Notes under the pieces: generated by a model | Databases searched by the model: none | Told to the model about the DNA's origin: nothing | The model's input: only the letters and a program-made list of their open reading frames with translations | Program-made: the position numbers and the translations under genes | In this document: positions 14,975 to 64,000 of the stretch, piece after piece | Layout: every line of letters begins with the position of its first letter | Position numbering within the stretch: position 1 is the stretch's first letter | Source: Octopus vulgaris | Lineage: Eukaryota | NCBI GenBank assembly: GCA_951406725.2 | Contig: OX597838.1 | Coordinates: 39,804,001 to 39,868,000 of the forward strand | Reading direction: 5' to 3' | DNA length: 64,000 nt

Positions 14975-15335
14975 GTGGTGAGCTGGCAGAAGTGTTAGCA
15001 CGCCGGGCGAAATGCTTAGCGGTATTTCGTCTGCGGTTACGTTCTGAGTTCAAATTCCACTAAGGTCGACTTTGCCTTTCATCCTTTCGGGGTCGATAAA
15101 TTAAATACCAGTTACGCACTGGGGTCGATATAATCGACTTAATCCGTCTGTCTGTCCTTGTTTGTTTCCTCTGTTTTTAGCCCCTTGTGGGTAGTAAATA
15201 AACAAGTATTTCGTCTGTTGCAACGTTCTGAGTTTAAATTCCGCCGAGGTCGACTTTGCGTTTCATCCTTTCAGGTCGATGAAATAAGTACCAGTTCCCC
15301 ACAAAATTTTCGAGGCCTTGTGCCTAGAGTAGAAA
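14975..15335 (+). mobile_element. SINE family 2 composite (Tx1-tailed unit plus headless second unit with a different tail)
   Basis: Meta-domain-like gtcgactttgcctttcatcctttcggggtcgataaattaa; junction near 15205. Confidence 0.85.
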
Positions 15336-15699
15336 TAATAATAATAATTATTATCATCATCATCATCATCATCATCATCATCATCATTATTATTATTGTT
15401 TGGAAAAATAGAACGTTTGTTCATGGCTCGTCAGTTTCCTTTAGAATATGTTTTATTATTTGGTATACGAATTATTGTTTAACTGTTTACTAGATAAGGT
15501 AGCTCGCTTTGCTTGCAGTTCACTGGTCTGGCGAAAACTTCGCTTTTGAAAGACGAATTTTGAAAATAATGATAAAATAACAACACAAGCACGACCTCCC
15601 CCACCGCTACCACCAATACAAAAATTAATACAACCAAAACATCGGCGTTCTTATTTCTAAACAAACTGGGTTTCGCTTCGCACAATTATGTCGTAGAAG

Positions 15700-16195
15700 G
15701 AAGGACGTTGACGTGTCTGAAAACAAGGTAAGCGATGCAAAAGCACACTTTACAAAGAGTGACAGAATAATATTTCTAAACACGCCAGAGGAAATAGAGG
15801 AAGACACTAAAAAAGTATTATATACAAATGGCACTACTCTGGAGGTTACAGGAGCAAACTTTAACAAAATAAAATCAGTGGGCCTACAGAGAGGTAGGTC
15901 CATACAGTCCAATAACGTCGTGGAACGCTGGACGTGAAGGCCGGTTAAATAGCTCGGGGTCTAGTTTGGTCTGCATCTCCTGGTGGAGAAAAGATAGTAC
16001 AAGGTAACGATCAGGGTGGCTAATGTCACTGAGAAATAGTGATTAAGCTGTCCCTGACAAGTCGGGCAAAGGTGGCGAATGCTTACGTCACTCCGTTATA
16101 TATTATCGTCTGACCCAGTTTACGCCTGACCAAACTTGAGCGCGCATTCTTCCGCTCTCTGTGGTAGGGCGGTGTTTCACTAATCAGGCGCTTCA
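15700..16195 (+). mobile_element. Internally deleted Tx1-like relic (probable ORF1 piece joined to post-RT ORF2 piece)
   Basis: LNTPEEIEE resembles ORF1 INIPEEILE; EVTGANFNKIKSVG and WT-GPVK-LGV match 39345-39730. Confidence 0.65.
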
Positions 16196-16807
16196 TTGTT
16201 TCTGCTTTCAGGCTCCACATTCAGGTTGTTTTTATTTCTAGGTCTAGGTATTTCGGCAGTTTATCTGTTTCTTTTAGAGATACAGAGATAGATTACCATC
16301 TGTCGGGACTGATATGTCGGTTAGAAGGCATTTATTTTCTTGGTTGTCCTTGAGAACAATATCTGGTGTATTAGACTTGATCTCACCTCTATCTGTGTAT
16401 AGTAGCATAAACTATACTTTGAATAAAATGGGAGGATAGTTAAATGTACTTTAAAGCAATAAAATTTAAGTCTAACAGGCGATATCCTTTATGGCTAAAA
16501 ATAGAAGAGCTACAACATAAAGTAATGAGATTCTACCCACCTCCTTTAATGCAGCTTACATTTGTCTAATACACTGGTTTCAAATTTGGGGACAAGGCAA
16601 GCAATTTTGAAGGAAGTACCAAGTAAAATACATCGACCACACCAGTGCTCCACTAGTAGTTATTCAATCAACCCCGAAAATCGAATTCGGTGGAATTTGA
16701 AATCAGAACGTAAAGACGGCCGAAATGCCGCAAGTATTTTGCGCAGCGCGCTAACGATTCTGTCATCTCGCCACCTTACATCTGTTTAATATATTAGGCT
16801 GTCAGAA

Positions 16808-17200
16808 GGCGGCAAACTGGCTGAATCGTTAGCGCGCCGGGCAAAATGCTTAGCGGTATTTCGTCTGCCGCTACGTTGTGAGTTCAAATTCCGCCGAGGT
16901 CGACTTTGCCTTTCATCCTTTCGGGGTCGATTAAATAAGTACCAGTTACGCACTGGTGTCGATGTAATTGACTTAATCTGTTTGTCTGTCCTTATTCGCC
17001 CCCTCTATGTGTAGCCCCTTGTGGGTAATAAAGAAATAGGTATTTCGTTCTTGTTTATGTTCTGAGTTCAAATTCCGCCGAGGTTGACTTTACCTCTCAT
17101 CATATCAAGGTTGATAAAACAAGTAGAAGTTGACCACAGGGGTCGATGTACTCGTTTGTAACCACCCCCCATAATTTCAGTTCTTGTGCATATAGTAGAG
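16808..17200 (+). mobile_element. SINE family 2 composite
   Basis: Tail aataaagaaata joined to ggtatttcg at 17039. Neighbouring copies at 16600-16775 (-) and 17222-17420 (+). Confidence 0.85.
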
Positions 17201-17583
17201 AAGGGTAGAAACGTAACATTGGGCGGCGAACTGGCAGAATCATTAGCATGCCGTGCAAAATACTTAGAGGCATTTCGTCTGCGTTTACGTTCTGAGTTCA
17301 AATTCCAGCGAAGTCGACTTTACCTTTCGTCTTTCGAAATCGATAGAATAAGTACCAGTTGATGTAATCAACTTAGCCCTCCTCTAAAATTGCTGTCCAT
17401 AAGCCAAAATTTGAAACGAATACATTAAGGTGTCAGATAATTTTTTTTATTGTTTTCCCCCTGCTTCTCACTTTTAAAAAGTGTAAAGATAAACGATAAA
17501 CCAAAGTGGCAAACAAAGAACAAGTCTATAAATAAACCTTAAACACTACGAAAGAAATATTAATTCGAATAACATTGTAAAGG

Positions 17584-17990
17584 AGGCGCAGGAGTGGCTG
17601 TGTGGTAAGTAGCTTGCTAACCAACCACATGGTTCCGGGTTCAGTCCCACTGCGTGGCATCTTGGGCAAGTGTCTTCTGCTATAGCCCTGGGCCGACCAA
17701 TGCCTTGTGAGTGGATTTGGTAGACGGAAACTGAAAGAAGCCTGTCGTATATATGTATATATATATATGTATGTGTGTGTTTGTGTGTCTGTGTTTGTCC
17801 CCCTAGCATTGCTTGACAACCGATGCTGGCGTGTTTACGTCCCCGTCACATAGCGGTTCGGCAAAAGAGACCGATAGAATAAGTAGTGGGCTTACAAAGA
17901 ATAAGTCCCGGGGTCGAGTTGTTCGACTAAAGGCGGTGCTCCAGCATGGCCGCAGTGAAATGACTGAAACAAGTAAAAGAGTAAAAAGAG
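17584..17990 (+). mobile_element. SINE family 1
   Basis: Near-complete copy. Confidence 0.88.
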
Positions 17991-61574: not shown

Positions 61575-62140
61575 GAGTATAACCGTGGATGTAAAAGAAA
61601 TGTGTTAGCTATAGATGGAACGTCTGTTTTGCATAGTTCCATTGTTAAATAACAGCACAGACAATATAATCACGACGGCAATTTGCGAGAAATAGTATCA
61701 AATTTTATTTGTAGCAAAGACGGAAAACATCATTCTTTGGGCATATAAATAGATTTTGAATTGCATGGAAACATTGGGAAATTTTTGACATGTATATGTG
61801 TATATATATATATATATATATATATATATATATATATATATATATATATATACATATACATATGTGTGTGTGTGTGTGTGTGTGTACATGAGTCAAATTT
61901 ACTACAATAAAGAAAAAACTCAACCTAATTATTGTAAAGAAATATATGCAATGACCATTATTCATACCTTGTCTTATAATTATATATGTATATATATATA
62001 TATATATGTGTGTGTGTGTGTGTTTTATATATATATATATATATATATATATATACGTACACACACAGTGTATGTGTGTCTGTGTATCTGGGTGGGTGTG
62101 TATATGATGAAAAGCACTAGTGAAACAGAAGCTACATGGT

Positions 62141-62478
62141 ATATTACTATTATTATTATTATTATTATTATTATTATTATTATTATTATTATTATTATTA
62201 TCATCATCATTATTATTATTATTATTATTATTATTATTATTATTATTATTATTATTATTATTATTATTATTATTATTATTATTATTATTATCATTATTAT
62301 TATTATCATCATCATCATTATTATTATTATTATTATTATTATTATTATTATTATCATTATTATTATTATTATTATTATTATTATTATTATTATTATCATT
62401 ATTATTATTATTATTATTATTATTATTATTATTATTATTGTTGTTGTTGTTGTTGTTGTTGTTGTTGTTGTTGCTGTT
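62141..62478. repeat. (ATT/ATC/GTT)n microsatellite
   Basis: Expanded relative to the paralogous 20405-20540 array. Confidence 0.95.
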
Positions 62479-62598
62479 GGTGCCCCCACACGGATCAAAA
62501 TCTAAAAACCAATACAAACAATTTTAAGCAATCTTTGAGCAAAAAGTTATCCCTGAAACGTAGATAACGTATTGAATACATTCTGTTTAATTCGTCAA

Positions 62599-62692
62599 TT
62601 ATTGTCCAGTTTTGGCGTTGATCCATGCTGTCAACTTAGGCGCGTTTTCCGAAGTGCATTTTGAAGACATCATACCAAGATTTTTCCATAAC
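62599..62692 (-). CDS. Stanniocalcin-like paralog C, exon 4 (upstream exons presumably beyond right edge)
   Basis: Acceptor cctttgcgttgtag; LWKNLGMMSSKCTSENAPKLTAWINAKTGQ-TAA, nearly identical to gene B exon 4 but stopping 4 codons earlier (TCA to TAA). Confidence 0.8.
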
Positions 62693-62832
62693 CTACAACG
62701 CAAAGGAATAAAGGAATATTAGTGTCTTTCTGTACCACACAGAAGCGAATTAAAACATTTTCTGTTGTTCCTGTTTAGTCCCCAATTCAGTACAAACAGT
62801 AACAGAAGTGAACTATAATCGGAGACATTTCA

Positions 62833-63244
62833 GCGGTGAGCTGGCAGAAACGTTAGCACGCCCGGCGAAATGCTTAGCGGTATTTCGTCTGCGTTACGTT
62901 GTGAGTTCAAATTCCGCCGAGGTCGACATTGCCTTTCATCCTTTCGGGGTCGATAAATTAAGTACCAGTTACGCACTGGGGTCGATGTAATCGACTTAAT
63001 CCATTTGTCTGTCCTTGTTTGTCCGCTCTGTGTTTAGCCCCTTGTGGGTAATAAAGAAATAGGTATTTCGTCTGCGTTACGTTGTGAGTTCAAATTCCGC
63101 CGAGGTCGACTTTGCCTTTCATCCTTTCGGGGTCGATAAATTAAGTACCAGTTACGCACTGGGGTCGATGTAATCGACTTAATACCTATGTCTGTCCTTG
63201 TTTGTCCGCTCTGTGTTTAGCCCTTTGTGGGTAATAAAGAAATA
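62833..63244 (+). mobile_element. SINE family 2 composite with 12-bp TSD (1 mismatch)
   Basis: ggagacatttca 62821-62832 / ggcgacatttca 63245-63256; internal junction at 63062. Confidence 0.9.
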
Positions 63245-64000
63245 GGCGACATTTCAAATATGGCTGCCATGTCCAATTCTCAGCAATAAGGAATCTCCAG
63301 GCTACGTTATTGTGTGTAGTTTATTTTTATGACTTGTTTGAACGTTATTAGAAACTTTTGGGTATGAGCTTTTTCGTGTGTGTACAATTCTTTAAATGTT
63401 GTAGCTATGGCACAATAAAAGTAAGCATATATATACATATGTGTGTCTGTCTACACATAGACGTATAGATGCCATTATATTCTTTATTATTTTTGTTCCT
63501 TCTTTTGCTTTAGAATAGTATACACACCTTATCTATATTTCCTCCTTCCCCACCCCACGATAAAATTGTGCCTTAATGTTGTATGTATTGATATATTTTA
63601 TAGACATGCATTAGTATTTCTTGTCGTGTGAAAAGTGTTATATGTAAATATTTGTAACCATTTATCAAATGTAGCGTTTGATGGTGTATGTATGTATGCA
63701 TGTATGTACGCATGCATTCATGTATATATGTATATGTGGATGTACATGAACTTATGTATATATATATATATATACTTATGTATTATATATATATATATAT
63801 ATATATATATAACGCGAGGGGAAATCAAAAGTCATCTGCACTTTCGTCATAACATATCTTTATTATTGTCACTTCTGCATATGCGTACTTATAGTAGAAA
63901 CTATTGTGGTCACGTGATCAGAGTTTGAGCTCGATCACGCCATTTTTCTTTCTCGCTTTACAGTGTAAGCATGGCACCAAAAAAGATAAAAGAGCAGTGA

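Follow-up and report, generated by a model that had tools for sequence, protein, structure and literature searches.

A Probable Target-Selective SINE of Octopus vulgaris That Appears to Nest Into Older Copies of Its Own Family

Introduction

The 64,000-nt stretch of Octopus vulgaris contig OX597838.1 analyzed here (hereafter, the window) is animal-like DNA with abundant microsatellites, in which a short interspersed element (SINE) of ~233 nt recurs. Fifteen of its units were aligned, and they share a common 5′ part followed by at least two alternative tails, tail A ending in GAAATA and tail B ending in an AT-rich run. The evidence below indicates that the tail-A form is very probably target-selective, entering DNA at C^GG (the caret marks the point of insertion), and that it likely inserts into its own older relatives, because the family carries C^GGTATTTCG internally.

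Copies of the SINE are short, dispersed, numerous and without coding capacity; between 189,464 and 459,708 contigs aligned per public run, although contig counts and depth are not copy numbers. A motif resembling an A box lies at SINE positions 10–20 and one resembling a B box at positions 73–83. As to a head derived from tRNA, 5S, or 7SL RNA, ARAGORN found 0 genes, and Rfam returned 0 matches at E ≤ 10 for positions 62800–63300, a search in which a head derived from small nuclear RNA (snRNA; U1/U2) likewise found no match. With the Deu/Nin tRNA SINEs and the octopus repeats OK, OR1, and OR2, the element presumably shares A/B-like boxes, a conserved body, and exchangeable tails derived from long interspersed elements (LINEs), its body being a putative relative of the Deu/Nin domain. 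Pattern scans matched 0 viral contigs and 0 metagenome contigs in each of two scans; a single prokaryote match (L001) was rejected as a chance hit in an unrelated bacterial sequence.

Tail-A Insertions and Their Target

A profile search over the whole window recovered exactly seven tail-A ends and three LINE ends. Four of the tail-A ends run directly into the internal C^GGTATTTCG site of the same family, at SINE position 47, and form dimers with one head (loci A, B, C, and E); locus D is a tail-A monomer, and a tail-B monomer was kept for comparison:

14975..15204, plus strand: locus A, unit 1, head, body, and tail A, an older copy; internal GGTA at 15021
15205..15345, plus strand: locus A, unit 2, starting at the internal site (AGTATTTCG), with an internal deletion, tail B, and (AAT)n
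16806..17038, plus strand: locus B, unit 1, head, body, and tail A; internal GGTA at 16855; core differs from the family majority at 5/93 positions
17039..17205, plus strand: locus B, unit 2, starting at the internal GGTA, with tail B, the old target copy; core differs at 19/93
21063..21292, minus strand: locus C, unit 1, tail A
20880..21062, minus strand: locus C, unit 2, starting at the internal GGTA, tail A; two private substitutions in common with unit 1
49073..49305, plus strand: locus D, tail-A monomer, the reference for contig alignment
62833..63061, plus strand: locus E, unit 1, tail A; internal GGTA at 62879; A-like box at 10–20 and B-like box at 73–83
63062..63244, plus strand: locus E, unit 2, starting at the internal GGTA, tail A
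6504..6720, plus strand: tail-B monomer of the same family, comparison copy; AT-rich target-site duplication of ~12 nt

The bases that follow tail A are GGTA in five of seven cases (17039, 49306, 63062, and, on the minus strand, 21062 and 20879), GGCG in one (63245), and AGTA in one (15205); thus GG follows in 6/7 and a decayed AG in the seventh. These are the same seven ends that an initial reading made from the sequence alone (the sequence-only reading) had described as followed by GGTA, a decayed GTA, or GGCG. Three tail-A insertions are flanked by target-site duplications (TSDs), which vary in length and are all preceded by C:

49054..49070, plus strand: locus D, left TSD, 17 nt, perfect, C before; right copy 49306–49322; starts C^GGTA
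21293..21308, minus strand: locus C, left TSD, 16 nt, perfect, C before; right copy 20864–20879; starts C^GGTA
62821..62832, plus strand: locus E, left TSD, 12 nt, one mismatch, C before; right copy 63245–63256; starts C^GGAG

The sequence-only reading gave the left TSDs as C^GG(T/A)A. C^GG holds at three of three, but locus E reads C^GGAG, and the motif is therefore C^GGW(R) and not CGGWA. Of the 110,544 masked positions that the two strands offer, 747 carry CGG, and the probability that two further TSDs match the CGG of the first in register is about 5e-5, for a motif that was picked post hoc. The four tail-to-internal-site junctions represent one common target and do not count as four independent tests of the motif.

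Sites that existed before insertion bear directly on whether GG belongs to the element or to its target. Loci C and E lie between paralogous flanks (84.5% over 291 nt), and the paralog of locus E contains an empty site:

21345..21357, plus strand: empty paralogous site for locus E, C followed by a single copy of the 12-nt TSD

The reverse comparison, of the locus C site in the E paralog, is uninformative owing to an indel there. For locus D, contigs of four public runs (X1, X5, X6, and X9; 4 of 24, with organism labels A–D) were aligned on positions 48850–49550. One X5 contig (contig 9) matches over 108 nt with 0 differences up to exactly 49053, the C before the left TSD, and has no SINE continuation. 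In X9, contig 32 begins exactly at 49306, the first base of the right TSD, and runs for 192 nt with 0 other letters, 1 gap, and no SINE; the depth expected in its bin from this contig is 3.7, against 4.17 observed. We infer that these contig breaks are those of an empty allele. A joint skipping the SINE, as an empty D allele would give, is absent among the joints listed, which weighs against this interpretation.

Because the left TSD copies and the empty sites hold GG, we regard GG as duplicated target DNA. The alternative, that GG(TA) is a constant SINE 3′ end independent of the insertion site, is extremely unlikely. It can draw on the depth profile, in which the signal past the tail corresponds to 1.7–1.8 nt at tail-bin depth in all four runs, versus 0.24 nt for random flanks (a rough estimate), since this excess alone does not separate target bias from a constant RNA end. 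All three left TSDs nevertheless start with GG, the empty E paralog carries GG beforehand, and the D contigs break at the TSD edges, which refutes a constant end for loci C, D, and E. A SINE RNA that ends in GG and pairs with the target is compatible with our preferred explanation. Together, C^GG at three of three TSDs, the empty sites, and the depth excess in four of four runs describe a non-random target, and the target selectivity proposed from the sequence alone is upheld. The flanks are biased, GG pre-exists in empty sites, and there is no single master dimer, and thus none of the three outcomes that the sequence-only reading had named as refuting it occurred.

Whether the SINE prefers its internal site beyond the mere CGGTA 5-mer is less clear. 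CGGTA sites have been used at the internal position in 4 of 11 family copies versus 2 of 35 others (p = 0.02, in a window chosen for the pattern); this is weak evidence for such a preference.

Four older family copies (G, H, J, and K, at 17269, 16729, 10590, and 57065) carry GGCA instead of GGTA at the internal site, and the self-target may have sharpened in younger SINE lineages.

The paralogs that hold loci C and E (20570–21430 and 62487–63330) are ~85% alike and include, on the minus strand, an AG acceptor followed by an exon-like stretch. A same-tail SINE dimer entered each of them independently; the two insertions are ~37 bp apart and face opposite ways, an unexplained coincidence or the mark of a local hot spot.

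One-Headed Dimers

At all four dimers the tail runs into a second unit as first described, and this unit has tail B at 15206 and 17039. The description of the second unit as headless was imprecise: position 47 lies between the A-like and B-like boxes, and the second unit therefore keeps its B-like box and lacks only the A-like box. No convincing outer TSD was found at loci A and B (the best being 8–9 nt with a mismatch).

Locus B shows nesting, a young copy lying before the remainder of an old one, because its second unit has the other tail and is far older. The core of unit 1 differs from the family majority at 5/93 positions and that of unit 2 at 19/93 (Fisher p = 0.004). The left site copy matches the old unit over only 10 nt, as might be seen if new cDNA had overwritten what was there before. 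Taking the loci together, it is likely that the tail-A SINE nests into older relatives. This claim of the sequence-only reading stands for the locus at 16806 and probably for that at 14975, but it does not carry over to the same-tail dimers C and E, which are ambiguous, C having private changes in both units.

Several observations weigh against nesting as a general account. First, the two units of locus A do not differ significantly in age (6/93 vs 9/91, p = 0.43) even though their tails differ. Second, the head of locus B (5/46) fits either unit (p = 0.23 and 0.30). Third, the excess use of internal sites falls to p = 0.24 when only the mixed-tail loci A and B are counted. Finally, both C units have two substitutions found in no other window copy, both E units have one change in common, and a 1-nt deletion at the 14th base of the site occurs in all four C and E units; such shared private changes count against nesting because independent insertion by a random active copy would not predict them. 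The E units do differ in a three-site block (ACCTA vs CCATT type) at which the family as a whole is polymorphic, a difference in keeping with nesting if the duplicated target brought the deletion along. Locus C is better explained by a template switch, by later conversion, by duplication on the spot, or by one source behind both units.

We consider it quite unlikely that the dimers are tandem duplications made after insertion, when the internal GGTA slipped against, or recombined unequally with, the GG(TA) in the right TSD. The changes in common within C and within E would follow from such events, and bivalve TSD1-(SINE)n-TSD1 arrays and squamate SINE-derived satellites provide precedents in the accessible parts of the reports (PMC11481361; PMC10702118). 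The pattern of units alike within a locus, however, fits C, E only in part, and neither A nor B: duplication cannot make the mixed-tail loci, the E units differ in the subfamily block, and the junction homology available is just 4 nt at C and 2 nt at E. A single dominant go-back joint among the joints listed (described below) would also be left unexplained.

Even less probable is that the junction formed once, in one or very few master dimers from which these dimers were copied. Over 414 nt, loci C and E agree to 95%, they have the 1-nt deletion in all four units, and transcription of the whole dimer is possible, with no T4 run in C or E. Yet no alignment column sets the two first units of C and E apart from their two second units, there being 0 position-specific changes in common; over 183 positions, the units of one locus differ by 5 and 5, units in the same position by 11 and 5, and crosswise pairs by 8 and 8. 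Loci A and B have different second units, and second units genome-wide mostly lack the C and E deletion and base. A single master dimer is thus largely refuted as the sole cause, while several secondary dimer sources are possible.

The Junction in Public Runs

The alignment of public contigs on locus D yields 15 listed joints, with 803 further ones; some joints are uncounted, and counts are therefore at least the numbers given. The tail-to-internal-site junction accounts for 5 of the 15, from 49306 to 49123 with variants resuming at 49130–49147, and is the best-supported go-back joint among those listed, with at least 41, 66, 26, and 35 contigs in X1, X5, X6, and X9 (168 together). In X6, 395 loose ends behind 49312 start after the tail plus GGTATTT, and their majority line is SINE body; its agreement of 0.51 corresponds to about 40% body if copies are 85–90% alike. 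This line carries the family-majority base at 49145 and lacks the deletion common to C and E. Since it resembles the family majority, and since the letters between joints vary, second units appear to come from across the whole family. In X1, a mixed head/tail line results from the 996 loose ends that precede 49123. A two-headed sense nest, from about 49116–49145 back to 49079, was not seen among the joints listed. Joints of tail, GGTAT, and head occur in at least 9, 6, 8, and 9 contigs (X1, X5, X6, and X9) and would fit re-use of a target site, by analogy with SINEU-3 and R1.

Opposite-strand joints that link the SINE head to the body, at 49079 and 49138–49146, were also recorded in at least 25, 42, 30, and 20 contigs, 14–22 nt from an antisense C^GGAA site; 5′ inversion or a composite family could also account for them. 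Antisense nesting at C^GGAA was considered and dropped: the matching tail-side joint is absent among the joints listed, and the private bases of the reference at 49135–49145 can themselves produce the clustering of joints.

For the same-tail dimers, a single insertion event may also be envisaged in which the reverse transcriptase switches template at the internal GGTATTT to the read-through 3′ end (tail-GGUAUUU) of the same or a second SINE RNA. We regard this as unlikely. It accounts for the private changes common to both C units, the junction coincides with the base that opens the 3′ arm of a predicted stem, and a T5 run 4 nt into the TSD of locus D would yield the tail-GGUAUUU end. On the other hand, it cannot put an old tail-B unit behind a young unit, as at locus B (p = 0.004), and the hairpin is modest, with z = −2.1, 8 of 200 shuffles as good, and two-sided change in 2 of 21 pairs, in one sequence each.

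The right TSD of locus D (49306–49314) places this T5 run four bases after the tail, as a ready Pol III terminator.

A Putative LINE Source for Tail A

In the window, three LINE ends run into (TATC)n:

34643..34692, plus strand: L1/Tx1-like LINE 3′ end homologous to tail A, then (TATC)n
near 40907–40952 and 46539–46572: two similar LINE ends, each then (TATC)n

Tail A aligns with all three, each time with a score equalled by 0 of 2000 shuffles. For tail B, 1227, 37, and 49 of 2000 shuffles reach the score. The LINEs encode an endonuclease, a reverse transcriptase, and a zf-RVT domain; protein searches returned 12 relatives, and the best solved relative is L1 ORF2p. We assign them provisionally to the Tx1 clade and not to L1, on an ORF1 zinc knuckle and a microsatellite target. 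The folds of the SINE and LINE tails are no more stable than those of shuffles.

These ends belong to three diverged L1/Tx1-like LINEs arranged head to tail (33334–34760, 35000–41080, and 41349–46720), with (TATC)n after each and also before the first, which likely represent a (GATA)n-targeting family. Two decayed L1/Tx1-like pieces at 1404–3715 consist of ORF1 and endonuclease remnants followed by a second ORF1 start.

The LINE evidence also includes a point against our model: the 64-kb window holds no partner LINE with a C^GG target, the three present all sitting in (TATC)n. Because all three ends lie in (TATC)n, the C^GG-targeting partner should be another family.

A Proposed Mechanism

The tail-A SINE was likely inserted at C^GG, with duplications of 12–17 nt, by a borrowed Tx1-type LINE enzyme. 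Tail A is homologous to L1/Tx1-like LINE 3′ ends, and the GG, with C before it, comes from the target and has been duplicated. The bottom strand is presumably nicked at 5′-WCC/G and primes reverse transcription, and further pairing with the target may come from an RNA that reads through to end in tail-GGUAUUU; locus D would yield such an end, which would match the internal site of the family for 7 nt. When the target is the internal site of a relative, a younger tail-A unit would come to lie before the rest of an older tail-B copy, the arrangement present at the mixed-tail loci. The top-strand overhang, identical to SINE positions 47 to about 62, may then anneal inside the new cDNA, and the redundant cDNA head would be trimmed, or would overwrite the old head, leaving one head. 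A truncated cDNA could in this way regain a normally spaced promoter, because the site lies between the A-like and B-like boxes. There is no T4 run within dimers C or E, and thus no such terminator, so some dimers may move as dimers. We hold this model as a whole, with its homology-sealed 5′ junction, with moderate confidence.

A further possibility, which we put forward tentatively and consider doubtful, is that the internal promoter region acts as a self-target beyond the short motif. Copies ending in tail-GGUAUUU would be guided to C^GGTATTT, and homology repair would let tail-A units overwrite tail-B kin, capture an A box, and turn truncated cDNAs into sources.

Comparison With Known Systems

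The closest precedent is found in the crocodilian SINEU-1/2/3 elements mobilized by Tx1-Mar LINEs (Kojima, 2015; PMC4494074). As described in the accessible portion of that paper, the target preference of SINEU is ascribed to the Tx1 partner, TSDs are about 10–16 nt, and repeated insertion at the same site gives tandem copies around the TSD, all of which resemble the octopus element. Unlike the octopus element, SINEU targets Mariner-N4_AMi, has snRNA heads, and leaves two copies sandwiching the TSD. The octopus SINE is not a SINEU because it has no snRNA head; its target is a short motif that also occurs inside its own promoter region, its dimers have one head, and no LINE sharing its target was found in the window.

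The R1 and R2 elements offer a model for the 5′ junction. In the part of the report available, annealing of their cDNA to homologous DNA upstream in the target makes the 5′ junctions precise, and R1 re-insertion into the TSD gives tandem arrays (Stage and Eickbush, 2009; PMC2718515). R1 and R2 are, however, autonomous and strictly 28S-specific, and the homology they use is host rRNA or a 2-nt microhomology, not an older copy of the element itself. Target choice within the Tx1 clade is further illustrated by Tx1L, which inserts into Tx1D, and by Kibi and Koshi, which insert into (TC)n and (TTC)n (as summarized in the accessible text of PMC4494074). The LINEs of the window likewise sit in (TATC)n and share the SINE tail. 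Unlike the SINE, Tx1L, Kibi, and Koshi are LINEs, and their targets are unrelated repeats.

Bivalve TSD1-(SINE)n-TSD1 arrays and squamate SINE-derived satellites, ascribed to recombination or duplication in the available sections of PMC11481361 and PMC10702118, also show a single full head followed by head-truncated units within one outer TSD. The first unit of the bivalve arrays has a truncated tail (same portion of PMC11481361), whereas the first octopus unit has a full tail, the octopus junction coincides with the insertion motif, and the octopus second unit can predate the first and belong to the other subfamily.

The accessible parts of PMC4824008, PMC4758252, PMC5804259, and PMC13282606 make no mention of target preference or self-nesting of octopus SINEs, and our literature search, with Repbase and most subscription papers outside its scope, found no report of the target or self-nesting of this family. 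What is new is a target-selective SINE whose target includes its own family. Few SINEs select their targets, and SINEU, the best described of them, goes into another transposon. A preferred site within the family itself would supply thousands of natural 5′ junctions with homology between target and cDNA, making the use of homology in second-strand joining readable from one genome, and may reveal how SINEs swap LINE-derived tails and revive old loci. If the self-target reading is true, a SINE subfamily spreads by colonizing its own kin, with a visible route for tail exchange between LINE partners. One-headed dimers would also confuse repeat libraries and age estimates.

Other Features of the Window

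A second abundant SINE family, with an internal microsatellite, occurs at 3890–4271, 17585–17990, 21410–21620, 24642–24923, 54588–54869, and 60176–60457. Open frames on the minus strand at 29099–29836 and 11854–12333 resemble a Tc1-type transposase and a fragment of a Helitron-type helicase, respectively, and are labeled so provisionally. An inverted repeat at 51098–51669 has 255-nt arms, 95% complementary and 62 nt apart, and a minisatellite with a 27-nt period lies at 57835–58239.

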